Source of the DNA: Minisyncoccota bacterium
GTDB lineage: Bacteria > Patescibacteriota > Minisyncoccia > Phycocordibacterales > UBA9973
Assembly: GCA_041663185.1 (NCBI GenBank)
Contig: JBAZQY010000002.1
Location: 74,629 to 138,628 of the forward strand
Direction of reading: 5' to 3'
DNA length: 64,000 nt
Position numbers and translations under genes: made by a program. Below, in pieces: positions 395 to 19,019 of this stretch. The notes under the pieces were generated by a model. That model ran no database searches, was not told where the DNA came from, and saw only the letters and a program-made list of their open reading frames with translations. The stretch's first letter is position 1. Every line of letters starts with the position of its first letter.

Positions 395-1441
395 ATGTTT
401 AAAAAATTTTACAAAATGTTTTCAAATGATATAGGGATCGATTTAGGGACAGCCAACACGCTGGTTTATTTGAAGGGACACGGAATAGTAATTAATGAGC
501 CATCAGTAGTTGTTGTAAATCAGAAAACAAGACAAATTGTTGCTGTTGGAGCAGAAGCCAAGCAAATGCTTGGTCGAACTCCGGGGCACATCAAAGCAGT
601 TCGGCCGGTTGTTGACGGGGTGATTTCAGATTTTGAAGTTACCGAAGAAATGCTTACTTATCTAATAAATAAAACAGAAAAAATTTCTAAGAAATTTATT
701 CGTCCTCGTGTTGTTGTTGGTGTACCGACGGGGATTACAAATGTGGAGATTAGAGCGGTGGAAGATGCGGCTCATTCGGCTGGGGCTCGCGAAGTTTATA
801 TTGTTGAAGAGCCAATGTCTGCGGCAATCGGAATTCGTTTACCGATTCATGAAGCCGTCGGTTCGATTATTGTCGATATGGGCGGTGGCACGACCGACGT
901 AGCTGTCATATCTTTATCTGGAGTTGTTCGTTCTAAGAATTTAAAAATTGCTGGTGATCTTCTCAACACGAACATAATGAATTACATGAAAGATGAATTT
1001 AAACTTTTAATTGGAGAAAGGACTGCCGAGAATATAAAGATTGCTATTGGAAGTGTGATAGAAGGAGAGCCAATGGAGGCAGAAGTCAGAGGCCGAGATC
1101 TTGTCACAGGATTACCTCGCCAAGTAATAGTGACTGATTCAGATATTCGCGAAGCGATTATGCCCTCTGTTTATAGTTTGGTAGATGGGATTAAAGAAGT
1201 TCTCGAGACTACTCCACCTGAGCTTCTTTCTGATATTATTCACCGAGGGTTAGTTCTTTCAGGGGGAGGGGCTTTACTTCGAGGCCTTGATGTAATGTTG
1301 CAAAATATACTCAAGATACCTATATACGTAGCCGAAGACCCCTTGACTGCGGTTGCTCGGGGGACGGGAATTATTCTTGAAGAATTTGACACCTTTAAGG
1401 ACGTTTTATTAAACACCGATGACACATCAGTTCCGAGATAA
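395..1441 (+). CDS. mreB: Rod shape-determining actin homologue MreB
   Basis: The N-terminus DIGIDLGTANTLVY is followed by actin-fold phosphate and adenosine motifs (VVGVPTGIT, DMGGGTTDVAV, VLSGGGALLRGL). The start could instead be the internal Met at 416. Confidence 0.9.
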   Translation: MFKKFYKMFSNDIGIDLGTANTLVYLKGHGIVINEPSVVVVNQKTRQIVAVGAEAKQMLGRTPGHIKAVRPVVDGVISDFEVTEEMLTYLINKTEKISKKFIRPRVVVGVPTGITNVEIRAVEDAAHSAGAREVYIVEEPMSAAIGIRLPIHEAVGSIIVDMGGGTTDVAVISLSGVVRSKNLKIAGDLLNTNIMNYMKDEFKLLIGERTAENIKIAIGSVIEGEPMEAEVRGRDLVTGLPRQVIVTDSDIREAIMPSVYSLVDGIKEVLETTPPELLSDIIHRGLVLSGGGALLRGLDVMLQNILKIPIYVAEDPLTAVARGTGIILEEFDTFKDVLLNTDDTSVPR

Positions 1442-2216
1442 AAAACAAATAGAAAGAAAGAAGAAAATTATTCGAAACGTAATTGGTTTTGGTGTGTTTT
1501 TTGTTTTGGCAATCACCGGTGTTCTTTCTTGGTCCGGACATATTTTTAATTTTGTTGGTCGTCCAGTCTGGGAAGCGGAAAAATCTACCACATCTTTTTT
1601 TTATAATATAAATTATTTATTCAGAACAAAAGCGTCCATCACCAAGGAGAATCACAATCTAATAGAAGAGAATATGTGGATCAGATTATCAATGGCAGAT
1701 TATCAAGTATTAAAAAACGATTTGGATGAATTAAAAAAAGTAATGGGGCGTATTCCTGATGTAGAGAATTTTATACTCGGGAACATTCTAACTAAACCAA
1801 ATCATTCACCATACGATACTTTGATTATAGATATTGGCGGTAGTAATGATATTAGAGAAGGGAATAGTGTTTATGCGAATGGTAACATTCCAATTGGTAA
1901 TATTAGTAAAGTCTATGACAAAACTTCTTTAGTTTCTCTATATACAAATCCCGGGCAAAAAACGGAAGGATTTATAGATGGGACAAATGCCAGTGTGGAA
2001 TTAACTGGTCGTGGGGGTGGAAATTTTGAGATGATTATCCCAATTGAGTTAATCGTTGAGAAGGGAACGATTGTTTACTTACCAAGTAGTACTTCATTGG
2101 TTATTGCACAAGTAGATGAAGTCATATCAAAACCCTCTGACCCATTTAAAAAAGTTATTCTTAGTTCACCGGTCAATGTCCAAAATCTTAAGTGGGTGCA
2201 AGTAAAAAAAGATTAA
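1419..2216 (+). CDS. mreC: MreC-like rod shape protein. It has an N-terminal TM helix and C-terminal beta domains.
   Basis: It lies immediately downstream of mreB. It has a basic N-terminus with a TM segment, then a G-rich beta region (ELTGRGGGNFEMIIPIELIVEKGTIVYLPSS). The true start may be downstream of 1419, which overlaps mreB. Confidence 0.55.
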   Translation: MTHQFRDKKQIERKKKIIRNVIGFGVFFVLAITGVLSWSGHIFNFVGRPVWEAEKSTTSFFYNINYLFRTKASITKENHNLIEENMWIRLSMADYQVLKNDLDELKKVMGRIPDVENFILGNILTKPNHSPYDTLIIDIGGSNDIREGNSVYANGNIPIGNISKVYDKTSLVSLYTNPGQKTEGFIDGTNASVELTGRGGGNFEMIIPIELIVEKGTIVYLPSSTSLVIAQVDEVISKPSDPFKKVILSSPVNVQNLKWVQVKKD

Positions 2217-2875
2217 TGAAGTCAATTAATTTTATAATAGAAAAAAAAATAGCCGGTGCGCTGGGGCGTGTCGGAAAACTTGAAACTCCACACGGGACGA
2301 TTTTGACTCCTTCTTTTGTGGTTGTTGGAACTAAGGCGACAGTTAAGGCTCTTAGCCCTGAGCAAGTCAAAGATGCTGGGGCACAAGTTGTCCTTGCGAA
2401 TACTTATCATTTGTATTTACAACCTGGCGATGAACTTATTCGCGATGCTGGTGGGCTTCATAAATTTATGAACTGGAATGGTCCAACCATGACTGATTCG
2501 GGCGGCTTTCAAGTTTTTTCACTGGGTGTAGCTTATGGAAAAGAATTATCAAAAGTTGTTTCAATTACAGATCCAAGTTTGCTTATCCCAGAGCGCTCAA
2601 GTATTGAGGACGGAGTTCCACGGCTTGCAACAATTGGGAATGATGGAGTTTCTTTTCGCTCGCACATTGACGGGTCCCTCCATTATATTACTCCCGAGAA
2701 ATCAATTGAAATTCAGCACAATCTCGGAGCGGATATTATTTTTGCTTTTGATGAATGCACAAGTCCAACAGAAAATGAAAGATACCAAGAAGAAGCACTT
2801 TCTCGAACACACGCTTGGGCGAAAAGGAGTTTGGAAAAACATTTGGAGTTAGAGGAAGCGAGGCAGAAAAATTAA
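2216..2875 (+). CDS. tgt: Queuine tRNA-ribosyltransferase (tRNA-guanine transglycosylase), N-terminal two thirds. The frame ends prematurely.
   Basis: RVGKLETPHGTILTPSFVVVGTKATVK...LANTYHLYLQPG...TDSGGFQVFSL...FDECT...THAWAKRS matches the Tgt catalytic core. The reading frame then runs into a stop at 2873-2875. Confidence 0.8.
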   Translation: MKSINFIIEKKIAGALGRVGKLETPHGTILTPSFVVVGTKATVKALSPEQVKDAGAQVVLANTYHLYLQPGDELIRDAGGLHKFMNWNGPTMTDSGGFQVFSLGVAYGKELSKVVSITDPSLLIPERSSIEDGVPRLATIGNDGVSFRSHIDGSLHYITPEKSIEIQHNLGADIIFAFDECTSPTENERYQEEALSRTHAWAKRSLEKHLELEEARQKN

Positions 2876-3387
2876 GAAAAAAATCTGCCGAAGTGATTGG
2901 TGGGATGGATTTTGATGGTTTTGGTATTGGTGGATCTTTTGCAAAGGAGGATATGTCGACGGCAGTAAAATGGGTAAATGAAATTTTGCCAGAAGAAAAA
3001 CCTCGTCACTTACTTGGAATAGGGGAGCCGGAAGATTTATTTATGGGAGTGGAGAATGGTGTAGATCTTTTTGATTGTGTTGGCCCAACTCGAATTGCGC
3101 GAAATGGAACTTTATTTACGAAAAATGGAAAAATAAATATTACTAATGCGAAATTTGTAAATGATTTCAATCCAATTGATGAAGGTTGTAATTGCTATAC
3201 ATGCAGTAATTATACAAAAAGTTATCTCGCTCATCTTTTTAGAGCTAAAGAGATGCTCGGTGCAACATTAGCTTCAATTCATAATGTATATTTCATCAAT
3301 AAATTGGTTAGTGATATGCGCCAAGCAATTCTCGAAGACAAATTTTTTGAATTCAAAAAAGAGTTTCTAGCGGGTTATTTAAAATAG
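2848..3387 (+). CDS. tgt: Queuine tRNA-ribosyltransferase, C-terminal third, in a different frame (shifted by one base). This is a frameshifted gene or possible pseudogene.
   Basis: FGV...DFDGFGIGGS...HLLGIGEPEDL...DLFDCVGPTRIARNG...NPIDEGCNCYTCSNYTKSYLAHL carries the Tgt zinc site (CxCxxC...H). It continues the N-terminal fragment only after a 1-nt shift, within 2836-2850, next to an A5 run (GGAAAAAC). Confidence 0.75.
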   Translation, partial: VRGSEAEKLRKKSAEVIGGMDFDGFGIGGSFAKEDMSTAVKWVNEILPEEKPRHLLGIGEPEDLFMGVENGVDLFDCVGPTRIARNGTLFTKNGKINITNAKFVNDFNPIDEGCNCYTCSNYTKSYLAHLFRAKEMLGATLASIHNVYFINKLVSDMRQAILEDKFFEFKKEFLAGYLK

Positions 3388-3399
3388 ATATATTTTAAT

Positions 3400-3430
3400 T
3401 TGTCACAAAAGACAAAATGGTAGTATAATA
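3400..3430 (+). promoter_or_regulatory. Candidate sigma70-like promoter. TTGTCA-18 nt-TATAAT ends 9 nt before the uvrB ATG, implying a near-leaderless mRNA.
   Basis: ttgtca (3400-3405) and tataat (3424-3429) with the ATG at 3439. There is no Shine-Dalgarno sequence. Confidence 0.4.
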
Positions 3431-3438
3431 GTTTTTCT

Positions 3439-5634
3439 ATGTCCAATAACATATTCAAGCTTAAAAGTAATTTTTCTCCAGCCGGTGATCAGCCGAAGGC
3501 AGTTTCCGAGTTGCTAAATGGTCTTAAAAAGGGAATGAATAAACAGACATTACTTGGTGCTACGGGGACAGGGAAGACTTTTACTATTGCCAATGTAATT
3601 GAAAAATGGAATAAACCAACTTTAGTGATTGCTCACAACAAGACGCTAGCAGCACAGCTTGCTCAGGAATTTCGAGAGTTTTTCCCTGACTCGGCTGTTC
3701 ATTACTTTGTCTCGTATTATGATTATTATCAACCTGAGGCCTACATGCCAGTGACTGATACTTATATTGAAAAGGACGCTCAAATAAATAAAGAAATTGA
3801 CCGACTTCGTCACGCTACCACCCAATCGTTACTTACACGACGCGATGTGATTATTGTGGCTTCGGTGTCGTGTATTTACGGTCTGGGTAGTCCAGAAGAA
3901 TATGAAAAAGTAAATCTGAAACTAAATGTTGGAATGAAAATTGGTAGGACAGAATTAATGAAGCAATTAATCGGAATTCATTTTGAGAGAACCAATGCCG
4001 ATATAACACCAGGAACTTTTCGTTCAATTGGAGCGAAGGTAGAAGTTATGCCGATCTCGGAAACTTTTATTTATCAAATCGAATTTGAAGGAGGAGCAAT
4101 TTCAAGAATTGCGAAAGTTGATCCAGTTTCTTCACACATAATTAAAGAAGAAAAAAACATTTTTCTATTTCCCGCCAAGCATTTTATTACAAATTCTGAG
4201 CAATTAAAGATAGCGGTAAAAAATATTAAAGATGAACTTAATTTTCAGCTTAAAAAATTTGAGAAAGAAGGGAAACTTCTCGAAGCTGAAAGAATAAAAA
4301 GAAGAACGAATTATGACTTAGCGATGATCAGAGAAATTGGATATTGCAATGGAATAGAAAATTATTCAAGACAGATGTCCGGGAAAAAAGAAGGGGAAGC
4401 TCCAGAAACCTTACTTGCGTATTTTAAGGGTGATTTTCTGACAATTATAGATGAATCTCACGTGACCCTCCCTCAAATTGGTGGAATGTATGCGGGGGAT
4501 GCTTCGCGGAAAAATACGCTTGTGGAATTTGGTTTTCGACTGCCGTCAGCAAAAGATAATCGACCGTTAAAGATTAATGAGTTTGAAGAAAGAACTGGAC
4601 AAACTATTTATGTCTCTGCAACTCCAAGTGAAAAAGAAAAATCAATGAGTGCCCAAATCGTCGAGCAGATAATTCGCCCAACCGGACTTATTGACCCAGA
4701 AGTTATTGTCAGACCCGTTAGTGCGTTTACAAGAGAATCTTCTGAAAAAAATCGCTTATCCCTCTCCGCTCCTTCGGAGCTCCGGCGCGCCCACACCTAC
4801 GATTTTTTGTCAGAAGATTCTCTCTCCAACGCCTACCCTGGCCAAATTCAAGATTTTATTATTGAAGCGGAAAAAACAATCAAAAAAGGTTTTCGAGTTA
4901 TTGCCACAACTTTGACCAAGAAAATGGCCGAAGATTTATCTGTTTATTTAAAAGAGAAGGGAATAAAAGCAGAGTATTTACATAGTGAAATTAAAACTAT
5001 CGAGCGCATTCAAATTCTTACCCAATTTAGAAAAGGAGAAATCGATATTCTAGTCGGAGTGAATTTGCTTCGTGAGGGTTTGGATTTGCCAGAACTCGCA
5101 CTCATTGGTATTTTAGATGCCGATAAGGCTGGATTTTTACGCTCTGAAACATCTCTTATCCAGACTATCGGACGAGCGGCAAGAAATGTGGAGGGGAAAG
5201 TTATTTTGTATGCTGATGTAATGAATGATGCACTTGAAAACGCAATCGGGGAAACAAATCGTCGTCGTAATATCCAGATAGCTCATAATAAAAAACACAA
5301 CATTACTCCAAAAACAATTATAAAAAGAATTAAAGATATTACTGAAGAGCTAGAAGACAAACATGAAAAGGCGGTGAATTTAGAGCTTGGTTTAGACGTA
5401 GAGATATTCAAAAAAGCTTTTGAAAAAAATAAAAGTAATCGCGGAAAGGGGGAGCGGGAGTCAGTTAAGAATTTACTACTTTCAGATGAAGATAGGAATA
5501 AGGTTGTCTATGAGAAAATAATTAAAATGAAAGAGAGGGAAATGAATAAAGCCGTCCGAGAACTGGACTTCGAAACAGCGGCAATTTTGCGTGATGAGAT
5601 AATAGTGCTAAAAGAGAAAATGGAGGTTAAGTAG
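3439..5634 (+). CDS. uvrB: Excinuclease ABC subunit B (UvrB). It carries an in-frame subfamily-A repeat-element insertion at 4732-4823.
   Basis: GDQPKAV, GATGTGKTF, YFVSYYDYYQPEAY, the helicase motifs, the beta-hairpin and a C-terminal UVR domain (ELDFETAAILRDEI) are all present. It is about 70 aa longer than usual because of the insertion between RPV and the TTLTKKMAEDL block. Confidence 0.95.
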   Translation: MSNNIFKLKSNFSPAGDQPKAVSELLNGLKKGMNKQTLLGATGTGKTFTIANVIEKWNKPTLVIAHNKTLAAQLAQEFREFFPDSAVHYFVSYYDYYQPEAYMPVTDTYIEKDAQINKEIDRLRHATTQSLLTRRDVIIVASVSCIYGLGSPEEYEKVNLKLNVGMKIGRTELMKQLIGIHFERTNADITPGTFRSIGAKVEVMPISETFIYQIEFEGGAISRIAKVDPVSSHIIKEEKNIFLFPAKHFITNSEQLKIAVKNIKDELNFQLKKFEKEGKLLEAERIKRRTNYDLAMIREIGYCNGIENYSRQMSGKKEGEAPETLLAYFKGDFLTIIDESHVTLPQIGGMYAGDASRKNTLVEFGFRLPSAKDNRPLKINEFEERTGQTIYVSATPSEKEKSMSAQIVEQIIRPTGLIDPEVIVRPVSAFTRESSEKNRLSLSAPSELRRAHTYDFLSEDSLSNAYPGQIQDFIIEAEKTIKKGFRVIATTLTKKMAEDLSVYLKEKGIKAEYLHSEIKTIERIQILTQFRKGEIDILVGVNLLREGLDLPELALIGILDADKAGFLRSETSLIQTIGRAARNVEGKVILYADVMNDALENAIGETNRRRNIQIAHNKKHNITPKTIIKRIKDITEELEDKHEKAVNLELGLDVEIFKKAFEKNKSNRGKGERESVKNLLLSDEDRNKVVYEKIIKMKEREMNKAVRELDFETAAILRDEIIVLKEKMEVK
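4732..4823 (+). repeat. Structured palindromic repeat element, subfamily A, copy A1. It is in-frame inside uvrB and is translated as ...SSEKNRLSLSAPSELRRAHTYDFLSEDSL...
   Basis: The core cgcttatccctctccgctccttcggagctccggcgcgcccacacctac (4753-4800) is about 70% GC in a genome of about 33% GC. It is flanked by a copy-specific inverted repeat, agagaatcttctgaaaaaaatcg versus cgattttttgtcagaagattctct. The inner hairpin is gctcc-ttcg-ggagc. Confidence 0.8.
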
Positions 5635-5654
5635 AAAGGTGATATACTTAAAGG

Positions 5655-6476
5655 ATGAAAAAGAACTTAATTTTAGTTATATTTTTAATAATAATTTTAA
5701 TAATTATTGGATTTATTTTTAAAAATTCGAATACCAAGAAGGGTACTTCTGAGACAGAAAAACCGTTAATCTTAAACGAGGGGTTAATTGTAGCCGATTC
5801 ATACGAGACGAAAACCATGAATCTTGACGATCCATATTCAACATTTGATGTAAAGTATCCGTATTTTAAAAATGCTGATGTTAGTTTCAATGCTAATGTA
5901 GAGACATTTGTAAAAAATAAAATGGATGAGCATGTAAAAAATAGTGCGGATAGTTGGCAGGCTCGATATAACACACAAGTGAGGGGTGATAATATTCCAA
6001 AAGTTCCCGCAACCACAGATGATAAATTTTCTTTCATTTCCGATTTCACTATTATTCAAAGTAATTCATCATATATAAGCTTCGTTTTAAACTATGGGGG
6101 CTTTAGTGGAGGAGCTCACGGATATGAAAATAAAGTTTCTTTTAGTTATGATGTGAAAAATAAAAAAGTAATTGAACTGGAAGATTTGTTTACTAATAAT
6201 CCCGATTATTTAACTTATCTCTCCGAGCAATCGCGTGAAATTCTCAAAAAAGAATTTGCAACAGTCAGTGAGGAGGACAGAAAAAATTCAGACCCCGAAG
6301 CGATTAAAGAATATGTTGATAACATAGTTTCGATGATCCAAGAAGGAACTGAACCGAAAGCAGAAAACTTTAGTGTTTTCACTTTCACGCCAGAAAAAAT
6401 AAAAATCTATTTTGCCCAATACCAAGTCGGGCCGTATGTTATCGGAATGCCAACAGTAGAAGTGGATAGGGAATAA
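5655..6476 (+). CDS. Secreted or membrane-anchored protein. It is probably a DUF4163/DUF3298-type (RsiV-like) envelope protein.
   Basis: It has a signal/TM N-terminus. YPYF...NANVE and GGFSGGAHGYEN match the DUF4163/DUF3298 pattern. This is recalled from memory and is low certainty. Confidence 0.4.
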   Translation: MKKNLILVIFLIIILIIIGFIFKNSNTKKGTSETEKPLILNEGLIVADSYETKTMNLDDPYSTFDVKYPYFKNADVSFNANVETFVKNKMDEHVKNSADSWQARYNTQVRGDNIPKVPATTDDKFSFISDFTIIQSNSSYISFVLNYGGFSGGAHGYENKVSFSYDVKNKKVIELEDLFTNNPDYLTYLSEQSREILKKEFATVSEEDRKNSDPEAIKEYVDNIVSMIQEGTEPKAENFSVFTFTPEKIKIYFAQYQVGPYVIGMPTVEVDRE

Positions 6477-6483
6477 AAAAAGC

Positions 6484-6502
6484 GGGGGTAAAAAATACCC
6501 CC
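6484..6502. terminator. GC hairpin (gggggtaaaaaataccccc). The T-run is on the minus strand, so it is oriented as a minus-strand intrinsic terminator.
   Basis: An inverted repeat of 6 or more bp of G/C is preceded on the plus strand by an A7 run. Confidence 0.4.
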
Positions 6503-6654
6503 ACTCAATGCTTACCAGACAGTATTCTGTGTTTGACCCATCTCTTCACGTCTGAAAAAATGAACGAATTAATGTTTTTCAACAAACCTTCCGCCCGGTT
6601 CTATCAAACCAGTATCTGAGCTATATAAATGTAGATTACTAATTTATTATATTT

Positions 6655-6682
6655 TTGTCAAATATAATATTTATGCTACAAT
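6655..6682 (+). promoter_or_regulatory. Candidate promoter for uvrA (TTGTCA-16 nt-TACAAT) with a leader of about 130 nt.
   Basis: ttgtca at 6655-6660 and tacaat at 6677-6682. An AT-rich extended -10 lies upstream. Confidence 0.3.
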
Positions 6683-6818
6683 TGGACTAGTTAAATATTG
6701 GTGTACCCCCTCATAGAACAAATGTGGGGCTTATAGCGTTATATAAAAAGACTTGTCCCGTTAGAAATTTACGAGCTCAAGTTATAAGATAAATTTAATA
6801 ATTAAAATTTCTAATGGG

Positions 6819-9611
6819 ATGAAAAAAAACGAAGAAGGAAAAATAATAATAAAAGGGGCGCGGACACATAACTTGAAGAATATTAGCGTCGAGATGCCTC
6901 GGAATAAGATGGTTGTTATTACAGGTATGTCAGGAAGTGGAAAGAGCTCGCTTGCTTTTGATACTATTTTTGCTGAAGGCCAACGTCGGTATGTTGAGTC
7001 GCTTTCAGCGTATGCCAGGCAATTTTTAAACCAAATGCCAAAGCCAGATGTCGATGAGATAACAGGTCTTTCGCCGGCAATTTCGATTGACCAGAAATCT
7101 CGTTCGAACAATCCACGCTCGACAGTGGCGACGATTACAGAGATATATGATTATCTTCGAGTTTTATATTCTCGCATTGGACATCCGCATTGTCCGCTTT
7201 GTGGGGATGAAATAAAAAAACTTTCGAACGAAGAGATAATAAATTTTGCCTTGGATAAAATAAAAGAATTTCAAAAAAGTTCAAAAAAGAAAAAAGTTCT
7301 TGGTGTGGAATGGGACGAAACACCAATTTCTATTTTATCTCCAGTTGTTCGTGGCCGAAAAGGTGAATACTATCAGCTTCTGTATGATTTACTTGGCAAA
7401 GGCTTTACAGAAGTTCGCATGGATGGAAATATTAAAAAGTTGCGCGAGCGAATAGATATATCAAAAACAAAAACACACAACATTGAGGTTATAGTGGATT
7501 CTTTTCAAATCCATGAATTTAAAGATAATCCGAGCGATGCTCGAATGCGACTATCTGAAGCGGTGGAGAGAGCAATAATTGAGTCTGAGGGATTGGTTGT
7601 AATTGCTTTTGGGGATATAACTTTGCAGAAACACGCAAATTCTCCGCGCTTAACCCTAAAGGGCTCCGACACGACGGAGAATTTGCGTGTTTCTGCTCCG
7701 CTCCCTAATTATGAAGAATTTTTATTATCGTCAAAATTCTCTTGTCCACGAGATGGATTTGCGTTCCCGGAAATTGAACCACGACTTTTTTCTTTTAATT
7801 CTCCATACGGAGCTTGTCCGACATGTAATGGACTTGGGACAAAATATTTCGGTGGAACGGAAATATGTGATGATTGTCATGGTGCTCGACTAAGAGTTGA
7901 AGCCCTTAATGTGTTTATTGGGGAAAAAGTGAAGCAGGAACATAAAAATTCTTCCCGCTTAACCCTAAAGGGCTCCCTGCCCGACAGTGTCAGTCATAGG
8001 CAGGCGGGCGACACGGATAAGAATTTTCATATTCCTGCTTCGCTTAATATCGTTGACCTCACGCATTTATCGATAGACAAAGTTGCGGACTTTTTTATTG
8101 AACTTGAATTAAATGAACAAGAAAAAGAAATTTCAAATGTAGTGATTAAGGAAATTGAATCGCGTCTTCAGTTTTTATTGAACGTTGGTTTAAATTATTT
8201 ATCATTGGATAGAAAAGCCAATACTTTATCAGGTGGAGAAGCCCAACGTATTCGCCTCGCCAGCCAGCTGGGCTCACGATTAGTTGGAGCACTGTATGTT
8301 CTTGATGAACCGACGATTGGTCTGCACCAACGTGACAATGATAAATTAATTAAAACACTTGAAAATTTGCGTGATATTGGAAATACAATTATTGTTGTTG
8401 AGCACGATGAAGATACAATTTATTCATCGGATTATATCATCGATATTGGGCCAAAAGCCGGAGTCCACGGTGGGGAAGTTATTGTTGCTGATTATTTAGA
8501 CAAACTTCTAAGTGCTCCGACAAACTCTTCAAAATCAAGAACTTTGGCATATTTGCGTAATGAAGAAAGAATTGAAATCCCAGAGAAAAGACGTACGGGT
8601 GAAAAAGGTTCGATCAAAGTTGTTGGGGCAAAAGTTTTTAATATAAAAAACATGAATGTGGAAATTCCGCTCGGCAAGATGGTTACGATTACTGGAGTTT
8701 CTGGGTCTGGTAAAAGTTCTCTGATGTATGAAGTCCTCCATAAAAATCTACAGGCGCGTTATGAACGTAAATACAGAACAGCAACAGTGTTTAACTGCGC
8801 GTCTTTTTCAGGGACAGAATACTTGTCACGAGTAATTTTGATTGATCAATCACCAATCGGACGAACACCACGTTCAAATATTTCTACTTATACTGGCTCG
8901 TTTACTTTTATTCGTGATCTTTTTGCTAGCACCGAAGAAGCTCGTCTTCGGGGTTGGAAGGCCAATAGATTTTCTTTCAATGTAAAAGGGGGTCGTTGTG
9001 AGGCCTGTGAAGGTAACGGTGAGATAGCGGTAGAAATGCATTTCCTACCAACCGTCTATGTGACTTGTGATGTTTGTAATGGTAAAAGATTTGATAAAGA
9101 AACATTAACCATAAAATATAAAAAGAAAAATATTTACGATGTCCTCCAGATGACCGTCGAAGAAGGGTTGAAATTTTTTGAAGATATTCCAAATGTTTAT
9201 GACCGAGTTAAAACCTTAATGGATGTCGGGCTTGGATATGTGAAGCTCGGCCAATCAGCCACAACTCTTTCTGGTGGGGAAGCGCAAAGGGTAAAAATTT
9301 CTTCGGAGCTTTATCGCCCTTATTTGGAGAAAACAATTTATTTACTCGATGAGCCGACTGTCGGGCTTCATTATGATGATGTGGTAAAACTACTTGAGGT
9401 TTTGAATAAGTTAGTAAACAAAGGCAATTCTGTTGTTCTTATTGAACACAATATGGATATTATCAAAAATTCAGATTATATTATTGATGTAGGTCCTGAG
9501 GGAGGACTCGGTGGTGGTAATTTAGTGGCTAAGGGAACGCCAGAAGAAGTGGCCAACAATCCAGCTTCTCATACTGGTAAATATTTGAAAAAAGTGTTGA
9601 GGAGAAAATAA
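6819..9611 (+). CDS. uvrA: Excinuclease ABC subunit A (UvrA). It carries two in-frame subfamily-B repeat insertions.
   Basis: There are two ABC ATPase modules (GMSGSGKSSL and GVSGSGKSSL; LSGGEAQR twice; LDEPT twice) and zinc-finger Cys clusters (CPLCGDEI, CPTCNGLG, CEACEGNG, CDVCNGKRF). It is 930 aa. Confidence 0.95.
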   Translation: MKKNEEGKIIIKGARTHNLKNISVEMPRNKMVVITGMSGSGKSSLAFDTIFAEGQRRYVESLSAYARQFLNQMPKPDVDEITGLSPAISIDQKSRSNNPRSTVATITEIYDYLRVLYSRIGHPHCPLCGDEIKKLSNEEIINFALDKIKEFQKSSKKKKVLGVEWDETPISILSPVVRGRKGEYYQLLYDLLGKGFTEVRMDGNIKKLRERIDISKTKTHNIEVIVDSFQIHEFKDNPSDARMRLSEAVERAIIESEGLVVIAFGDITLQKHANSPRLTLKGSDTTENLRVSAPLPNYEEFLLSSKFSCPRDGFAFPEIEPRLFSFNSPYGACPTCNGLGTKYFGGTEICDDCHGARLRVEALNVFIGEKVKQEHKNSSRLTLKGSLPDSVSHRQAGDTDKNFHIPASLNIVDLTHLSIDKVADFFIELELNEQEKEISNVVIKEIESRLQFLLNVGLNYLSLDRKANTLSGGEAQRIRLASQLGSRLVGALYVLDEPTIGLHQRDNDKLIKTLENLRDIGNTIIVVEHDEDTIYSSDYIIDIGPKAGVHGGEVIVADYLDKLLSAPTNSSKSRTLAYLRNEERIEIPEKRRTGEKGSIKVVGAKVFNIKNMNVEIPLGKMVTITGVSGSGKSSLMYEVLHKNLQARYERKYRTATVFNCASFSGTEYLSRVILIDQSPIGRTPRSNISTYTGSFTFIRDLFASTEEARLRGWKANRFSFNVKGGRCEACEGNGEIAVEMHFLPTVYVTCDVCNGKRFDKETLTIKYKKKNIYDVLQMTVEEGLKFFEDIPNVYDRVKTLMDVGLGYVKLGQSATTLSGGEAQRVKISSELYRPYLEKTIYLLDEPTVGLHYDDVVKLLEVLNKLVNKGNSVVLIEHNMDIIKNSDYIIDVGPEGGLGGGNLVAKGTPEEVANNPASHTGKYLKKVLRRK
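7623..7700 (+). repeat. Structured palindromic repeat element, subfamily B, copy B1. It is in-frame in uvrA and is translated as ...NSPRLTLKGSDTTENLRVSAP...
   Basis: The core cgcttaaccctaaagggctccgacacga is flanked by the copy-specific inverted repeat aaacacgcaaattctccg versus cggagaatttgcgtgttt. The conserved outer ends are ttgcagaaa and tttctgctccg. Confidence 0.8.
7931..8041 (+). repeat. Structured palindromic repeat element, subfamily B, copy B2. It is in-frame in uvrA (NSSRLTLKGSLPDSVSHRQAGDTDKNFHIPAS) and carries a nested 31-bp palindromic insertion.
   Basis: The outer inverted repeat is gaagcagg versus cctgcttc, and the arms are aaaattcttcc versus ggataagaatttt. The core cgcttaaccctaaagggctcc...gacacgga is split by ctgcccgacagtgtcagtcataggcaggcgggc, which is itself an inverted repeat (ctgcc/ggcag, gcccg/cgggc). 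Confidence 0.75.
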
Positions 9612-9614
9612 AAA

Positions 9615-9633
9615 AGGGACAGACGCTGTCCCT
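9615..9633. terminator. Bidirectional hairpin between the convergent uvrA and a small minus-strand gene. The T-run lies on the minus strand.
   Basis: agggacagacgctgtccct with flanking A5 and A5 runs. Confidence 0.5.
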
Positions 9634-9653
9634 TAAAAAGATATTGGTTTTAT

Positions 9654-9872
9654 TTACCAATAATAGTCCATAAACTTGTAGAAGTATCTAAAAATTAAGA
9701 GTCCACCAAGAAAGCTCAGTCCTAAGGTTAAAAACAAAGGATTAAAAGGAGTTGAGTTTTCTATCCATTTTGTTATGTTTTCATTATAGCCAAGAGCAAT
9801 AATTCCAGTTTTAATCATAACAGCTGCTCCTAATACAATCATCGACAGGTAAAAAATAATTTTTTTGTTCAT
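9654..9872 (-). CDS. Small two-TM membrane protein, hypothetical.
   Basis: The ORF reads MNKKIIFYLSMIVLGAAVMI... with two hydrophobic helices. There is no recognisable family. Confidence 0.3.
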   Translation of the reverse strand: MNKKIIFYLSMIVLGAAVMIKTGIIALGYNENITKWIENSTPFNPLFLTLGLSFLGGLLIFRYFYKFMDYYW

Positions 9873-9913
9873 GATGTTGTTTTTTAGTTTCTTAAATGAT
9901 AACATAAAAAGAT

Positions 9914-11215
9914 ATGAAAGTCAAAGATTTAAAAAAATTTAAATTGCCAGAGAAACCAGGAGTTTATTTTTTTTACAAAAATAAAGATATTTTATATATA
10001 GGCAAGGCCACTTCGCTTCGCGATAGGGTAAAAAGCTATTTTGGTAAAGATCTCATAGTAACTCGTGGGCCAATTATTCTCGACATGGTAACTCAGGCAA
10101 CCTCGATTAAATGGCAGGAAACTGACAGTGTTCTAGAAGCGCTTATCTTAGAGGCAAATCTGATTAAAAAATATCAGCCGAAGTATAATACTAAAGAGAA
10201 AGATAATAAGAGTTTTAATTATGTTTGTATTACAAAGGAGGAAATACCCAAAGTTTTGGTTGTTCGTGGAAGGAACTTAAATTACCGAGCTGAAGGAAAG
10301 TTTTTCTCAGGTCCTCGGACGAGGGAGGACGAGGGGCCAGACCATTCAAAAAATCTTTCCTTCGGCTCGGTCTATGGCCCATTTCCAAATGGTTCACAAT
10401 TAAAAGAGGCGATGAGAATCGTGCGCAGGATTTTCCCATATATTGATGAACAATCCAGCAAAAAAAATAACAAAGAATTCTACAAACAATTGGGGCTAGT
10501 TCCTATTATTGGGGAGACAAAGCAGAAACATAAAAATTTTTATGTTTCTGCTTTGTCTGATTACAAGAAAAATATCAGAAATTTGAAGTTATTTTTTGAA
10601 GGCAAAAAGAAAAGAATAATTTCAAATTTAAAGAAAGAAATGGCAGCATTTTCAAAATCGCGAGATTTTGAAAATGCTGCTCGAATTCGCGACCAGATTT
10701 TTGCTTTAAATCATATAAACGATGTGGCTTTAATCAAAGAGGATAAGATATTCGGAAGTCCGACTTCCGAATATAGAGTTGAGGCATATGACATAGCTCA
10801 CATGTCAGGGCAAAATATGGTTGGAGTTATGACAGTTATGGAAGATGGACTACTCGCCAAAAATGAATATAAAAAATTTATAATTCGTTCGCAAAAATCT
10901 TCGAATGATACCGGCGCTCTTGAGGAAGTTCTTTCTCGTCGCTTTCGACATATAGAATGGGGCTTACCAAACCTCATTGTTGTCGATGGAAGTACTGCCC
11001 AGATAAATGTTGCCAAACGAGTTTTAAATAGATATCAATTCAAAATCGCAGTTGTTTCTGTTGTCAAAGACGACAAACATAAAGCCAAAGCAATAATGGG
11101 GGATGAAATACTCATCAAAAAATACAAAAAAGAGATTCTCCTAATAAACAGCGAAGCGCACCGTTTTGCAATTGCCTTTCATAAACAAAAAAGAAATAAA
11201 AATTTCCTCAGATAG
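9914..11215 (+). CDS. uvrC: Excinuclease ABC subunit C (UvrC), short form. It has GIY-YIG, UVR and endonuclease domains but no C-terminal (HhH)2. It carries an in-frame subfamily-C repeat insertion.
   Basis: GVYFFYKNKDILYIGKATSLRDRVKSYF is the GIY-YIG motif. FENAARIRDQIFAL is the UVR domain. The RNase H-like region is present. The 433-aa length is shorter than the canonical roughly 600 aa. Confidence 0.8.
   Translation: MKVKDLKKFKLPEKPGVYFFYKNKDILYIGKATSLRDRVKSYFGKDLIVTRGPIILDMVTQATSIKWQETDSVLEALILEANLIKKYQPKYNTKEKDNKSFNYVCITKEEIPKVLVVRGRNLNYRAEGKFFSGPRTREDEGPDHSKNLSFGSVYGPFPNGSQLKEAMRIVRRIFPYIDEQSSKKNNKEFYKQLGLVPIIGETKQKHKNFYVSALSDYKKNIRNLKLFFEGKKKRIISNLKKEMAAFSKSRDFENAARIRDQIFALNHINDVALIKEDKIFGSPTSEYRVEAYDIAHMSGQNMVGVMTVMEDGLLAKNEYKKFIIRSQKSSNDTGALEEVLSRRFRHIEWGLPNLIVVDGSTAQINVAKRVLNRYQFKIAVVSVVKDDKHKAKAIMGDEILIKKYKKEILLINSEAHRFAIAFHKQKRNKNFLR
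10285..10370 (+). repeat. Structured repeat element, subfamily C, copy C1. It is in-frame in uvrC and is translated as ...SGPRTREDEGPDHS...
   Basis: The core gtcctcggacgagggaggacgaggggccagaccat has an internal GGACGAGG x2 direct repeat. It is flanked by a copy-specific 26-bp inverted repeat, ccgagctgaaggaaagtttttctcag versus tcaaaaaatctttccttcggctcgg. Confidence 0.8.
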
Positions 11216-11223
11216 GAAAGATT

Positions 11224-11300
11224 ATATGCAAAAATTATGAGTAGGTGTGGGCGCGCGCCGAGCGAAGCGAGGTAGGGATAAGCGAATAATTTTTGTATAT
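11224..11300 (-). repeat. Structured palindromic repeat element, subfamily A, copy A2. It is intergenic between uvrC and ddl, in reverse orientation.
   Basis: The reverse complement is cgcttatccctacctcgcttcgctcggcgcgcgcccacacctac. The arms are atatgcaaaaattat versus ataatttttgtatat. The ORF-track N-terminal extension of ddl (MGARRAKRGRDKR...) is just this element translated. Confidence 0.8.
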
Positions 11301-11369
11301 AATCTTTCCTATTTTCAAATAAAAGCTATTTCAATTCCTATTATTTTAAATAATTGTTATAATGAATTT

Positions 11370-12374
11370 ATGATAAAAGTTGGAGTTATTCGTGGGGGAA
11401 TAAGTGGGGAATATGAAGTATCACTTGCAAGTGGTGCTCAAGTTCTTGAACATTTACGAAGCGACAAGATGAATAAAAAATACAAACCCGTTGATATCTT
11501 TATTGATCGCGATGGTATTTGGCATGTGAGTGGCATTCCTACAACGATGGATAAAATAATTCACAAAGTAGATGTTATTGTAAATGCTCTTCATGGGGAC
11601 TATGGTGAAGATGGTAAGGTCCAACAGTTGCTTGAGCAGTGGGGGATTCCATATACCGGTAGTGGGCCTTTTGCTTCAGCTATTGGCTACAACAAACTGC
11701 TAACCAAACAAGAATTTTCAAAGTTAGGAATAAACACACCAAGGCATATTCTTTTCCCAGCATATCAGGAAGATTTTGATGGACCAAAAGATAAATATGC
11801 ACTTTCAAAAGCTCGAGAAGTTCTTGAGCGCTTGCCCCCACCATGGATTGTAAAGCCCCTAACTGGTGGGTCATCGATGGGTATGCATATTTGTAAAACG
11901 TTTCAATCTCTTATTGATGCATTTAAAGATGGTGTCAATGGAAAGGTTAGTGTGCTTGTCGAAGAGTTTATAAAAGGCAAAGAAGCGACGGTAGGAGTGA
12001 TAGATAATTTTCGAGGAAAAGATATTTATACTCTCCCTCCGATTGAAATCCGAATTCCAAAAACGAGTGCATTTTTTGATAATGAAGTGAAATACAACGG
12101 TCAATCACAAGAAATTTGCCCGGGAAATTTTACAGATACTGAGAAAGAAGAGCTTGAACGCCTAGCTTCTCTTATCCACACCGGATTGGATCTTAGCCAC
12201 TATTCAAGAAGCGATTTCATTATTCACCCAAAGAGGGGCATTTTTGCTCTCGAAGTAAATACCTTGCCAGGGCTTACGGGAGAGTCACTAATGCCTAAAG
12301 CACTCAAGGCTGTCGGTTCTGATTTGCCTGAGTTTATTGAACATATCATTAAATTGGCGAAGAATCGAAGATAG
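11370..12374 (+). CDS. ddl: D-alanine--D-alanine ligase
   Basis: MIKVGVIRGGISGEYEVSLASG is the N-domain. ATP-grasp motifs (WIVKPLTGGSSMGMHI, EEFIKGKEATVGV, ALEVNTLPGLT) are present. The start is moved to the ATG at 11370, which is in-frame and downstream of the repeat. A TATAAT 8 nt upstream suggests a leaderless mRNA. Confidence 0.85.
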   Translation: MIKVGVIRGGISGEYEVSLASGAQVLEHLRSDKMNKKYKPVDIFIDRDGIWHVSGIPTTMDKIIHKVDVIVNALHGDYGEDGKVQQLLEQWGIPYTGSGPFASAIGYNKLLTKQEFSKLGINTPRHILFPAYQEDFDGPKDKYALSKAREVLERLPPPWIVKPLTGGSSMGMHICKTFQSLIDAFKDGVNGKVSVLVEEFIKGKEATVGVIDNFRGKDIYTLPPIEIRIPKTSAFFDNEVKYNGQSQEICPGNFTDTEKEELERLASLIHTGLDLSHYSRSDFIIHPKRGIFALEVNTLPGLTGESLMPKALKAVGSDLPEFIEHIIKLAKNRR

Positions 12375-12430
12375 TTATTTAAAGGGTATTGATTTTTCTA
12401 CATAAATATGATATAATATTAAGATAAATT

Positions 12431-13438
12431 ATGAAAAGATTTCTCGAAAAAATTACTCATACTATTATTCCCCACGAAAAGAACAGCAACGTTCCTCATA
12501 TTTTGAAGATAGAATCTCTGTTTGTTATCGCTACTTTTGCTATTGTTTTATTTTATTTTAATCAAAACAATTTTAGTATAATTAGGAATTTAAATTTATC
12601 AGCAACAGTTTATCCGGCGGTGCTTGCAGACCTCGCCAATCAAGATCGAGCAGTTTCTGGTGTATCTCTACTTACTTGGAACAATACTCTTGCCGAGGGA
12701 GCCAAATTAAAAGCCCTTGATATGGCGGAGAATAGTTACTTTGCCCACACGAGCCCATCTGGGGTTACTCCATGGTCATGGTTTGCAAAAGTAAATTATA
12801 ATTTTATCTATGCTGGAGAGAATCTGGCGGTAGATTTTACTGAATCAAAAAATGTACAGAACGCTTGGCTTAATTCTCCGACCCATCGAGCCAATATTTT
12901 AAGTTCACATTTCACTGAAGTGGGGATTGCGACCGTTGATGGAGTTTTTGAGGGTAAGAATACGACTTTTGTTGTCGAGTTTTTTGGCAGACCAGCTGAA
13001 GCTAAAGTGATTGAAAAATCTATTCTCAAAACACCCCAAACATTACCAAAAGAAACAAATAAAGTTACAACATCAAGTGTCGCCGGAGTATCAGCCGAGA
13101 AAGTACCGTCTCAAAATACTAAGCAAGATTTAAATATTAAAACAGTAGAAGAGACAGACAAATATATTGTTGTTAAAAATGAAAACATTCTAGGTGAAGA
13201 GTTTCCGATAATTTCAGATAATTTGAAAAGTAAATCATTGTCGACTTGTTTTGAGCGTTTTATCGTAAGCCCAACACAGACAATTAAATATATTTATATG
13301 ATTGTTCTCGTGCTAGTTTTGATCGCTATTTTATTAATGCTTTCAAAAGAGTACAAGAAACACCACATAAAACATGTAGTTATGGGAGTGGTACTCGTCA
13401 TTATAGTGGCGGTACTTTTATACACTATCTCTGTATAA
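12431..13438 (+). CDS. Membrane-anchored CAP/SCP (YkwD-like) domain protein.
   Basis: It has an N-terminal TM helix. The CAP-like motifs are AHTSPSG, YAGENLAVDF, NAWLNSPTHRANIL and HFTEVGIA. A C-terminal TM helix is present. Confidence 0.5.
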   Translation: MKRFLEKITHTIIPHEKNSNVPHILKIESLFVIATFAIVLFYFNQNNFSIIRNLNLSATVYPAVLADLANQDRAVSGVSLLTWNNTLAEGAKLKALDMAENSYFAHTSPSGVTPWSWFAKVNYNFIYAGENLAVDFTESKNVQNAWLNSPTHRANILSSHFTEVGIATVDGVFEGKNTTFVVEFFGRPAEAKVIEKSILKTPQTLPKETNKVTTSSVAGVSAEKVPSQNTKQDLNIKTVEETDKYIVVKNENILGEEFPIISDNLKSKSLSTCFERFIVSPTQTIKYIYMIVLVLVLIAILLMLSKEYKKHHIKHVVMGVVLVIIVAVLLYTISV

Positions 13439-14072
13439 TTTCTTCTTTTTTGTGACGGAAAAGGTCTATAATATAGAACATATATTTTGTTCCATTTTTT
13501 GATAAGTTGAAGAGTATTGCTATTGTAAACAATAAGATTGCAATCTTTGTACTATAAAATGCCACAACTATTGCGATAACAGCAGATATCACTGGGAAGA
13601 GGATATGCATATTTGCATGTTCGTTTTCTGTTTTAGTAAATGGTAGATTTTCAATCGTCTCGGATTTGATAGCATATCGTCTCATACGGTAAAGAATTAT
13701 ACCAATTAATATAATATTTATAGCAAAGAAAATGACTCCAGTTTTAGAATCGATATATCTTCCCAAGAAGTCAGAAGAGAATGGAACCAAAGCCACAAGG
13801 AATAAAAAGATTCCACTCAAATTTGAAAATTGCACATCAATATTTTTTGCAAGAACTGAGGCGATGATGTGGTGTGATCTCCAGTAAGTAAAAAGGAGAG
13901 AGAAGCTCAGCATGTAACTAAGCAGAAGTGGGTAGATACTAAACAGAGAACTAATAAGTGCTTGCTCTCCGACAATACCCGAAAGGATGGGCACTCGTAT
14001 TTCGAAAACTAAAATAGTCATAACGATAGCAAAGATACCATCTGATAATTGATCTAATCTTGATTGTTTCAT
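13425..14072 (-). CDS. DUF1211 / TMEM175-family membrane protein (putative K+ channel family).
   Basis: RLDQLSDGIFAIVMTILVFEIRVP is the signature motif, duplicated in the second half (FSSDFLGRYIDSKTGVIFFAINIILIGIILY). Confidence 0.6.
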   Translation of the reverse strand: MKQSRLDQLSDGIFAIVMTILVFEIRVPILSGIVGEQALISSLFSIYPLLLSYMLSFSLLFTYWRSHHIIASVLAKNIDVQFSNLSGIFLFLVALVPFSSDFLGRYIDSKTGVIFFAINIILIGIILYRMRRYAIKSETIENLPFTKTENEHANMHILFPVISAVIAIVVAFYSTKIAILLFTIAILFNLSKNGTKYMFYIIDLFRHKKEEIIQR

Positions 14073-14102
14073 ATAGGTAATTATATTATAATACTATTCA
14101 TC

Positions 14103-15077
14103 ATGCAAAGAAAAATATTAATTACTGGTGCCTTGGGCCAAATTGGCTCAGAGCTGATACCTGCCCTAAGAGAGAAGTATGGAAGTGAGAATGTCATTGC
14201 TGTCGGGCATCACAAAGAACCAACCGAAGAATTCAAGCAAGCTGGGCCTTTTGAGATGGCAGATGCAAGTGACAAGGAAGCCGTCCGAGCTTTGATTGAA
14301 AAATATCAAATCAATACGATTTACCATTTAGTTGGTATTTTGTCGGCTGTGGGGGAGAAGAATCCGAATCTAGCTTGGGATGTGAATATGAAAAGTTTGA
14401 AAAATGTTTTAGATTTGGCTGTGGAGTATAAAATCGATAGGGTATTCTGGCCAAGTTCGATAGCGGCTTTTGGGCCGACAACACCTTTATACGATACTCC
14501 TCAACAAACTATTTTGGAACCGACGACAATGTATGGAGTCACAAAAGTTTCAGGGGAATTATTATGTCAGTATTACTTTGTTAAATATGGCTTAGATATT
14601 AGAAGTTTACGTTATCCTGGAATAATTTCTTGGAAGACGCCCCCAGGTGGTGGTACGACTGACTATGCAGTTGCGATTTATTATGATGCTATCGCAAAAG
14701 GGAAGTATGAATGTTTTGTAAAAGAGGATACAGTTCTACCGATGATGTATATGGATGATGCTGTTCGTGCGACGATCCAATTGATGGAAGTCGAAAAAGA
14801 AAAAATAAAAGTGCATACTGCTTACAATCTAACAGCCATTAGTTTCTCGGCCAAAGAATTAGCCGACAATGTCGGGAAATATGTTGAGGATTTCGTCTGC
14901 ACATTTGTTCCAGATGAACGACAAAAAATTGCCGACTCATGGCCGAAGACGATCGATGATAGTAAGGCGAGAGGCGATTGGGGCTGGCAACATGAATTTG
15001 ATTTAGACAAAATTTCAGTTGAGATGATTAAAAATCTTAAAAATCCCAGTAGTAGAGCGAAGCTCACTACGGGATAA
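14103..15077 (+). CDS. NAD-dependent epimerase/dehydratase-family L-threonine 3-dehydrogenase-like enzyme.
   Basis: ILITGALGQIGSELIPALREKYGSENVI closely resembles the N-terminus of short-chain TDH (ILITGGLGQLG...). The YxxxK active site is present (YGVTK). Confidence 0.65.
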   Translation: MQRKILITGALGQIGSELIPALREKYGSENVIAVGHHKEPTEEFKQAGPFEMADASDKEAVRALIEKYQINTIYHLVGILSAVGEKNPNLAWDVNMKSLKNVLDLAVEYKIDRVFWPSSIAAFGPTTPLYDTPQQTILEPTTMYGVTKVSGELLCQYYFVKYGLDIRSLRYPGIISWKTPPGGGTTDYAVAIYYDAIAKGKYECFVKEDTVLPMMYMDDAVRATIQLMEVEKEKIKVHTAYNLTAISFSAKELADNVGKYVEDFVCTFVPDERQKIADSWPKTIDDSKARGDWGWQHEFDLDKISVEMIKNLKNPSSRAKLTTG

Positions 15078-15092
15078 ATAAAAAGGATTAAT

Positions 15093-15255
15093 TGGGCAAT
15101 AAAAAAGACCTGACATTGCTGTCAGGCCCAACCCTCATATCGAGGATTAATTAAGGTCACGCAAAAGCGGACGTGACATGTCCCCCAGGATACGGCGTTG
15201 CCAGGAACCGTTAAAATATTAGGGGGCTCGTATCTTATTTAGAATTAATATATCT
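15093..15255 (-). ncRNA. Candidate structured small RNA of unknown class, ending in a strong minus-strand intrinsic terminator.
   Basis: There are several G/C hairpins (gtcacgcaaaagcggacgtgac; ccccc...ggggg). The 3' hairpin cctgacagcaatgtcagg is followed by TTTTTT on the minus strand (15101-15126). No ORF is present. Confidence 0.3.
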
Positions 15256-15341
15256 AATTATAGTATTTTTGTCAAGTATTGTTTATACAACCCCAAAAAC
15301 AGATATTTGAGAAGTAAGTTAAAAAGTATTATGATTGAATT

Positions 15342-15557
15342 ATGCAAAAAAGAACAATCCTAAATGGGGGATATATTGGCATTCTAATGCTTTTGCTTGG
15401 AGTGGCTATTATTGTATTTTTTATTATTCGGACAGATTTATTTACAAATGAAAAAGATGGTAAAAATATGATTGAACAGAATAAGGATGCTATCGATAAA
15501 GCCAATGCAGTTAAGGCGCTGATGGAACAAAAAAGTAGGGAATCGGTTGGGGAATAA
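15342..15557 (+). CDS. Small single-TM protein, hypothetical.
   Basis: The ORF has a hydrophobic helix (GYIGILMLLLGVAIIVFFII). There is no family match. Confidence 0.3.
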   Translation: MQKRTILNGGYIGILMLLLGVAIIVFFIIRTDLFTNEKDGKNMIEQNKDAIDKANAVKALMEQKSRESVGE

Positions 15558-15830: not shown

Positions 15831-15989
15831 AAACTTAATTCTTAATTCTTAATTCTTTCATTATATATTACCTGATTTATATTTTTTTGCAATAGTTAAA
15901 GATTAGATATTATTTTGAATTTATTGACAATATTCTTACTTCATGCTAGTATTCAGAAAAACGAAAGATAAACCTTTAAACTGAAAATT

Positions 15990-19012: not shown

Positions 19013-19019
19013 ACCCTAT

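Follow-up and report, generated by a model that had tools for sequence, protein, structure and literature searches.

A nested 33-nucleotide hairpin module in a protein-coding palindromic repeat of uvrA from a Minisyncoccota bacterium

We analysed a stretch of 64,000 nucleotides (nt) from a Minisyncoccota bacterium (GenBank assembly GCA_041663185.1, contig JBAZQY010000002.1, positions 74,629 to 138,628, forward strand; hereafter the window), in which the excinuclease gene uvrA carries two copies of a palindromic repeat, here called B. The second copy, B2, is interrupted by an extra 33-nt segment, here called U. U is one copy of a small, sequence-conserved hairpin module that occurs in many unrelated palindromic repeats of uncultivated bacteria, mostly in the Candidate Phyla Radiation (CPR). 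On balance we think it probable that U is a selfish module captured in the loop of B, an element comparable to the Rickettsia palindromic elements (RPEs), and that the resulting composite, B-long, went on to spread and is now tolerated by UvrA in a loop predicted to be disordered. The finding is more general than the original prediction from this DNA had held. The parts of the uvrA locus are as follows.

6819-9611, + strand: uvrA coding sequence, 930 aa, from the list of open reading frames (ORFs) and its translation
7927-7955, + strand: 5' stem arm of B2, pairing with 8017-8045 in the fold of 7925-8045
7956-7976, + strand: left part of the B2 core, CGCTTAACCCTAAAGGGCTCC, an exact core match
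7977-8009, + strand: U, a nested 33-nt mini-hairpin module, read as LPDSVSHRQAG; single in the window and matched by covariance model R1
8010-8016, + strand: right part of the B2 core, GACACGG, from the alignment of B copies
8017-8045, + strand: 3' stem arm of B2, from the fold

The gene product is 100% identical to P0001, the NCBI entry for excinuclease ABC subunit UvrA of a Candidatus Paceibacterota bacterium, and matches UvrA structures in PDB with E = 5e-285. In this window of about 35% GC, the letters of U are CTGCCCGACAGTGTCAGTCATAGGCAGGCGGGC, and they sit precisely between GGGCTCC and GACACG; the other three core copies (at 7647, 47244 and 60513) read GGGCTCC/GACACG without U, the slash marking the junction. 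The original prediction had described a discrete insertion of 31 bp in the conserved core that kept the uvrA frame. Its placement and frame are borne out, while the actual length is 33 nt: U makes 11 in-frame codons, and the ORF stays open, reading ...LKGS-LPDSVSHRQAG-DTDKN..., so that by translation U is 11 extra residues of this DNA-repair protein. The entire B2 hairpin, 7925-8045, folds at -51.2 kcal/mol (z = -6.9). No other site in the window matches U at up to three mismatches, with 0 expected by chance, and model R1 scores the uvrA copy at 56.3 bits (E = 2.5e-11) as its sole hit there.

An assembly artefact or one-off event (such as a chimeric junction, a template switch at a quasi-palindrome or duplication of a local segment) would fit the uniqueness of the segment in the window, the proneness of palindromes to misassembly, and a 115-bp deletion by which the window differs from a sister assembly at another B copy. 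Against it, that separately assembled ENA contig (k141_1586727, here L004/L131) is 100% identical over window positions 1-19611, including the 33 nt, with the 115 bp as the sole difference. A homologous composite is also found on contigs L007 and L069, and more than 100 homologous units occur elsewhere. The chance of an artefact, which the original prediction had named as the finding that would undo it, is vanishingly small on these data. No 11-mer or longer word of the segment recurs elsewhere in the window, and a local-template origin was rejected.

The exact 22-mer of the uvrA insert had 0 matches in 185,579 species genomes. Relaxed patterns were needed because the middle of this copy departs from the family consensus, and a metagenome scan that fixed the two ends and left the middle free (CTGCCCGACA N8-14 GGCAGGCGGGC) gave at least 119 loci. 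Among the matches listed, about 100, on contigs of 31-52% GC, share the free middle GTGCCAGTCTTT and close variants of it; the consensus is CTGCCCGACAGTGCCAGTCTTTGGCAGGCGGGC, with variants of 30-34 nt. In about 20 further listed matches, on contigs with more than 58% GC, the middle is unrelated, and these were set aside as chance or coding matches. The copies of U lie in at least 85 distinct contexts, which form at least 53 dissimilar flank clusters, mostly with one copy per locus. The hosts are Paceibacterota and, by the named relatives of proteins on these contigs, Doudnabacteria, Woesebacteria and one Desulfobacterales-like contig of 50% GC.

About one third of the listed copies lie in ORFs of at least 150 codons, in all three frames and both orientations; the rest lie between genes, tRNA spacers among them. 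All six frames of the consensus are free of stop codons. On contigs L083 and L084, the reading frames of a UvrD-like helicase and of LeuRS continue through a U-bearing element of a family designated (i) (...LPARQCQSLAGGRPL...). U was absent from 2.9 million viral contigs, with no sign of a phage vehicle. Rfam 15 at the gathering threshold reported only three tRNAs in the window, and at E <= 1 nothing overlapped U or its host elements in 15 U-bearing loci. Literature string searches with U and its reverse complement returned nothing relevant, and we found no link in the literature between the CPR and miniature repeats. The earlier suggestion of a separate, smaller hairpin element type is supported by more than 100 metagenome copies in at least 53 flank contexts and by host sites both filled and empty. 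The genome search proposed with it returned no other unit in the roughly 75 kb available here and more than 100 homologous units in metagenomes.

ViennaRNA folds the consensus into a short, imperfect, GC-rich palindrome (-11.5 kcal/mol as DNA and -19.2 as RNA; z = -2.9 and -2.5). Its outer helix pairs GCCCG with CGGGC, or gcCTGCC with GGCGGGC (one G.U pair), and its inner helix pairs TGCCA with TGGCA around a GTCTT loop. This predicted fold is plausible, and a structure at the DNA level and one at the RNA level would both fit. The uvrA copy differs by C14T and T22A, both of which weaken the inner helix; on its own, 16-22 of 200 shuffles fold as well (z about -1.3 as DNA and -1.4 as RNA). The earlier description of the insert as itself palindromic holds only weakly for this copy and better for the family consensus. 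Its two stem-weakening changes, together with the roughly 10% of shuffles that fold equally well, suggest that the uvrA copy has eroded with age.

Six host elements besides B occur both with and without U, with exact junctions and no target duplication. In seven filled and empty comparisons (six between separate elements, one of arm versus arm), no bases are duplicated beyond a 1-nt ambiguity. The comparisons are listed below.

B: L004 at 5964 empty, window at 7977 filled
Cleanest pair: L031, with cttactcgAATTTGC/AATTCTtcgtaagtgattttgatccccc (right flank also given as AATTCTtcgtaag), empty; L085, with the same flanks, filled
Family (i), GCTGC/GACCAC, that is ...GCTGC/GACCACTTCGTGGACTA: empty copies in L112, filled copies in L112 and L106
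Further filled and empty pairs: L068 and L042; L032 and L049; L117 and L128
L063 and L103: a single element with one arm filled and the other empty

This presence or absence in otherwise identical elements shows that its host elements can do without U. Among the listed contexts, U is preceded by a YTRC-like C-T-(G or A)-C, as a preference only, and followed by G(A): of the 85 contexts, 79 have C at -1, 58 have T at -3 and 72 have G or A at +1, followed by A. B itself offers CTCC/GAC, close to the CTGC/GAC of family (i). In two family (i) copies (L093 and L104), the right arm 3' of U carries a further mini-palindrome, CCTGCCTGCCGGCAGG(C/T)AGG, inserted in GACCACT/TCGTGG; by these sequences, the nesting of GC-rich mini-hairpins appears to go deeper than one layer.

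The host element B is a long AT-rich stem round a conserved 28-nt GC-rich core, CGCTTAACCCTAAAGGGCTCCGACACGA. It has four copies in the window, all on the + strand, three of which are plain.

7625-7696, + strand: B1, plain, at the first UvrA hot spot (site 1), read as QKHANSPRLTLKGSDTTENLRVS; repeat family, fold of -43.2 kcal/mol (z -8.8)
47221-47294, + strand: B3, plain, intergenic between convergent genes; repeat family and core match
60490-60560, + strand: B4, plain, in frame in leuS (58578-61019), read as QKQINSSRLTLKGSDTTKNFSVS; repeat family and core match

The four window copies and a fifth in the sister assembly each fold as a long hairpin. The GC-rich loop is conserved, while the AT-rich arms vary between copies yet stay complementary, and the core was not detected outside loci related to this window. 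B can be read through in four of its six frames, but all seven independent genic sites (two in uvrA, one each in leuS and tgt, two in uvrC on contig L001, and one in rnhB on L007) use a single frame and read ..NSSRLTLKGSD... This single-frame use despite four open frames argues that B elements undergo translation and are filtered as peptides.

Every copy of B (four) and of the AGGTCCTCGG family (three) in the window is on the + strand, which also holds most of the genes, and the whole window has positive GC skew. Repeat orientation may track the direction of replication or transcription. The two B copies within the uvrA of L001 (encoding P0002), at 10871-10891 and 11177-11197, are 89% identical including the arms, compared with 73% for the uvrA pair of the window; this suggests recent replacement or gene conversion within one gene.

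Among 120 UvrA homologues (78-100% identity, mostly metagenome proteins, some from Paceibacterota or Nomurabacteria), the shortest has 844 aa and the longest 979 aa, and the insert-free base form has 863 aa. The variation falls mainly at residues 266-298 of P0001 (site 1; window 7614-7712) and 373-403 (site 2; window 7935-8027), where the peptides are distributed as follows.

B (NSSRLTLKGSD): 7 at site 1; 18 at site 2, plus 1 with B and U (this window)
VLGRGGREPVPDH: 6 at site 1; 4 at site 2
RRRGRA...: 0 at site 1; 9 at site 2
SSGLAPAPVP...: 0 at site 1; 5 at site 2
NRLSLP...AHTYDF: 0 at site 1; 4 at site 2
TSENLYEFD: 12 at site 1; 0 at site 2
No recognisable element: 77 at site 1; 69 at site 2

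Element types other than B occupy site 2 in 22 of the 120 homologues. With at least six repeat types at the hot spots among relatives, and the 863-aa forms empty, the protein sequences indicate that the same two UvrA loops have been invaded repeatedly and independently. In the AlphaFold2 model of this UvrA, residues 271-296 and 371-405 have pLDDT values of 23-30 and no secondary structure, and lie between confident domains. Set against solved structures of UvrA, site 1 lies between blocks that align, and site 2 at the place where this lineage is without most of the insertion domain. In three homologues (P0012, P0031 and P0032), site 1 holds the first half of B (SRLTL or HFTL) followed by a complete VLGRGGREP-type element, a composite or nested arrangement seen at the protein level only.

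A scan for the B core allowing any filler of 3-33 nt found the composite on contig L007 (Ca. Paceibacterota SO_2017_GW3_9). At 5181-5234 it reads GGGCTCC followed by CTGCCCGACAATGCCAGCTATAGGCAGGCGGGC and GACACGGATAA, with 33 nt at the same junctions, in frame in rnhB (RNase HII; ...FTLKGSLPDNASYRQAGDTDKN...). Its U differs from that of the window at four positions, all internal. The composite is 86% identical between L007 and this genome over 100 nt, and the two otherwise share a single 72-nt stretch at 76%. The B subtype TTCC-core-GACACGGATAA (TTCC/GGATAA) and the rare A22 of U are common to the two composites. A phmmer search with the 37-aa B-long peptide gave 0 matches at E <= 0.001 among 1.84 billion representatives, and a word-index search with a 44-aa profile of two sequences gave no further B-long candidate.

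We judge it likely that the composite existed before it landed in uvrA, since the junction, the B subtype and A22 are shared with the distant rnhB and no donor U occurs in the roughly 75 kb of this genome. U would have been captured in a B loop within this lineage, and B-long would then have propagated as a unit to uvrA site 2 and to rnhB of a distant Paceibacterota. In uvrA, U would be read as 11 residues, tolerated because the loop is predicted to be disordered. Most likely U contributes nothing to UvrA function and is a decaying selfish passenger. With this composite recurring at the same junctions and with the same B subtype and A22, the earlier claim of ongoing structural turnover within an essential gene is not supported in the form in which it was made.

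As to movement, we favour insertion into a single-stranded hairpin loop by an enzyme acting in trans, in the style of HUH enzymes and the IS200 and repetitive extragenic palindrome (REP) systems. This would agree with the single hairpin, the lack of duplication, the short 5' target preference and the hairpin-forming hosts. A close second is copying between hairpin loops templated by short microhomology, with CTRC on the left and GA on the right. The anatomy of U would fit loop insertion and microhomology copying during replication or repair equally well. A small GIY-YIG protein in three loci, kilobases away from U, was dropped as a recurrent neighbour.

Several observations weigh against a captured selfish module. 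Across the 53 distinct U sequences, 92.9% of cells pair and shuffles do likewise, and there is only one compensatory double change (A16G/T22C in L102); covariation is uninformative here because U is too conserved and its ends are fixed by the search pattern. With U taken out, pairs that span the junction are only modestly more numerous in the host flanks than at random sites (13.8 versus 10.7 pairs, p = 5e-4). In 100 loci, no protein family recurs beside U. An IS200 TnpA probe found no match near U or in the window, and the annotated or examined parts of the window hold no transposase domain. U is low-copy, one in about 75 kb, where classic selfish repeats are far more abundant, and the near-identity of the 33-mer across CPR classes could reflect functional constraint. 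Outside U, finally, B2 is closer to the tgt copy, which is from the same genome and has no U (84% identity), than to the L007 composite (73%), a closeness that would fit gain or loss of U in situ as well as descent of the composite.

The stricter proposition that U sits in the terminal loop of its host once removed was rejected (18% versus 13% at random, not significant). Because only the junction-spanning pairs were significant, the claim is the weaker one that U often, and not always, lies at or near the centre of the host palindrome.

The tgt copy bears directly on a recent insertion in situ, in which U would have jumped into a plain B already at uvrA site 2, implying current element-in-element activity: this U-less copy is the B copy most similar to B2. 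In addition, all 18 of the 18 relatives with a plain B at site 2 are without U, including the closest, P0002 (88% identical; DNA from L001), and U does enter pre-existing elements in other lineages. The sibling comparison proposed with the original prediction fits a gain of U in this way, and turnover in situ is not demonstrated by it. The shared junction, B subtype and rare A22 in the distant rnhB point the other way, as do the lack of a donor U in the roughly 75 kb of this genome and the two inner-stem-weakening changes, which suggest age. The arms of the P0002 site-2 copy differ from those of B2 (75% identity, as between unrelated B copies) and are nearly identical to those of the P0002 site-1 copy; a shared ancestral insertion is not demonstrable from them. 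We regard an insertion in situ as rather unlikely and prefer the pre-formed composite to it.

The tgt copy itself is found in the sister assembly. There the 115 bp deleted from the window (L004 5938-6052) comprise a fifth B copy, of the B2 subtype and without U, and 40 bp of tgt coding sequence, between two CAGAAAA heptamers. The gene is intact in L004/L131 (428 aa) and frameshifted in the window, as ORFs 2192-2875 and 2815-3387. Either the population varies here or the assembly collapsed at a hairpin. Its position in the window is:

2864-2870, + strand: junction CAGAAAA of the 115-bp deletion relative to the sister assembly, from blastn of L004 against the window

Functional constraint is central to a further alternative, in which U would be a functional module of nucleic acid: a hairpin that a conserved host factor binds or cuts, for instance as an RNA-processing, stability or replication-related signal. 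Selection would maintain it, repeats would have recruited it, and in the uvrA mRNA it would be regulatory. Its conservation across CPR classes is unusual at such low copy number, each of the ten one-sided inner-stem changes replaces C by U with a G.U pair retained, C(UUCG)G tetraloops, which are typical of RNA, occur in neighbouring elements, and no transposase is associated. Such a role sits poorly with the occurrence of U in either orientation to long ORFs, in each of the three frames and also between genes, with its presence and absence in otherwise identical hosts, and with the degraded stem of the uvrA copy; nor is there an Rfam match, even at E <= 1, or a covariation signal. We consider a functional module improbable.

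Returning to a selfish module captured by B, a bolder proposal can be made, which we hold only tentatively, as possible rather than probable. U may represent a new class of ultra-small (30-34 nt) mobile DNA that moves horizontally among CPR phyla and some other anaerobes, is specific for the loops of other hairpin-forming repeats (after YTRC and before GA), makes no duplication and relies on an enzyme or pathway not yet tied to transposition. Riding on gene-invading palindromes, it would remodel UvrA, RNase HII, LeuRS and a UvrD-like helicase.

Other repeats and loci in the window are recorded here as separate observations. A second repeat family, of the NRLSL...AHTYDF type, has a core that starts with CGCTTATCCCT and ends in ACGA as B does, with an internal hairpin of conserved TTCG loop and variable complementary arms; from its sequence it looks like B with other nested modules. 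A third family has the core AGGTCCTCGGACGAGGGAGGACGAGGGGCCAGACC between AT-rich complementary arms and is probably the source of the VLGRGGREPVPDH peptide in UvrA relatives. Two further palindromic families, CATTCCAACATTCTCAAGAATGTGAGAATGT and ACTAGCAAGAACAGTTCTTGCTA, are unrelated to B and U. The window also has a low-GC defence island with a type I restriction-modification system. Coordinates are as follows.

4747-4807 (+), 11237-11290 (-), 50433-50493 (+) and 55001-55050 (-): NRLSL...AHTYDF-type family
10308-10344, 35414-35459 and 56904-56933: family with core AGGTCCTCGGACGAGGGAGGACGAGGGGCCAGACC
18984-28142: defence island (29-33% GC) with HsdM with a MerR-type helix-turn-helix, HsdS and HsdR, interleaved with a Bro-N protein, a Shedu SduA-like protein and a YgjP-like peptidase
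28690-31115: CATTCCAACATTCTCAAGAATGTGAGAATGT and ACTAGCAAGAACAGTTCTTGCTA families, four copies each, with few ORFs of at least 180 aa

CPR (Patescibacteria) genomes are tiny and streamlined. They would nevertheless not be free of selfish DNA, as the essential genes uvrA, uvrC, leuS, tgt and rnhB abound in apparently translated palindromic repeats that themselves host a smaller, cosmopolitan hairpin. Selfish DNA of the Rickettsia type in protein-coding genes would thereby gain an independent lineage and a layer of nesting. With its exact boundaries, target preference and many filled and empty pairs, U offers a handle on the machinery that moves very small repeats, a question that also stands for REPs, small dispersed repeats (SDRs) and mitochondrial GC clusters. 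Such inserts also inflate and fragment protein families, mislead alignments and can cause differences between assemblies, as with the 115-bp deletion in tgt.

RPEs and the palindromic repeats in Wolbachia protein-coding genes are dispersed, lie in frame in unrelated housekeeping genes, encode the same peptide and are tolerated (PMC10969869); no nested module is described for RPEs in that review (PMC10969869). B is likewise a dispersed, multi-copy palindrome in frame in unrelated genes with one conserved peptide. It differs in being about 70-75 bp long, against about 150 bp for RPEs, in its Paceibacterota rather than alphaproteobacterial host, and in its conserved GC-rich loop with variable complementary AT-rich arms. 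B thus behaves like an RPE; the likeness is one of behaviour, and we do not assign B to an RPE family.

REP and REPIN elements are mobilised by RAYT (Y1, IS200-like) transposases. REPs number hundreds per genome, are nearly all extragenic and species-specific, and adjoin a RAYT gene (PMC3116915). A single-strand hairpin mechanism without target duplication has been proposed for REP/REPIN-RAYT and IS200/IS605 (PMC3116915). U resembles a REP as a short, imperfect, GC-rich, non-coding palindrome, but is low-copy, enters genes and is common to phylum-level groups, and the IS200 TnpA probe showed no Y1 gene beside it in 100 loci. With IS200/IS605 it has in common the lack of target duplication, the hairpin and insertion 3' of a short motif (in U a preference only), whereas a single 33-nt hairpin takes the place of two different hairpin ends and TnpA; no Y1 HUH transposase was found in the 64 kb plus flanks of this genome. 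The seven filled and empty comparisons without target-site duplication set U apart from cut-and-paste DDE miniature inverted-repeat transposable elements.

The mobile G+C clusters of yeast mitochondria are GC palindromes of about 30-40 bp in an AT-rich genome, with short target motifs; some lie in coding sequence (var1), where they are translated, some are mutually nested, and a duplicated TAG target flanks those of the major class. U differs in its lack of target duplication, its non-organellar setting and its lack of sequence resemblance, and is like them in size, palindromic form, target motif, coding insertion and nesting. SDR1-8 of Nostoc punctiforme were reportedly described as "very small mobile repeated elements" by Elhai et al. 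(2008, Genome Research). These SDRs are said to be hairpins of 21-27 nt that lie inside other repeats and mini-transposons, to have no transposase of their own and to occur at high copy number in one cyanobacterial subgroup. U, at 30-34 nt, is low-copy, near-identical across several CPR classes and carried into coding sequence. In behaviour alone it is like an SDR: a hairpin of under 40 nt, nested, with no transposase of its own, and present or absent between otherwise identical hosts.

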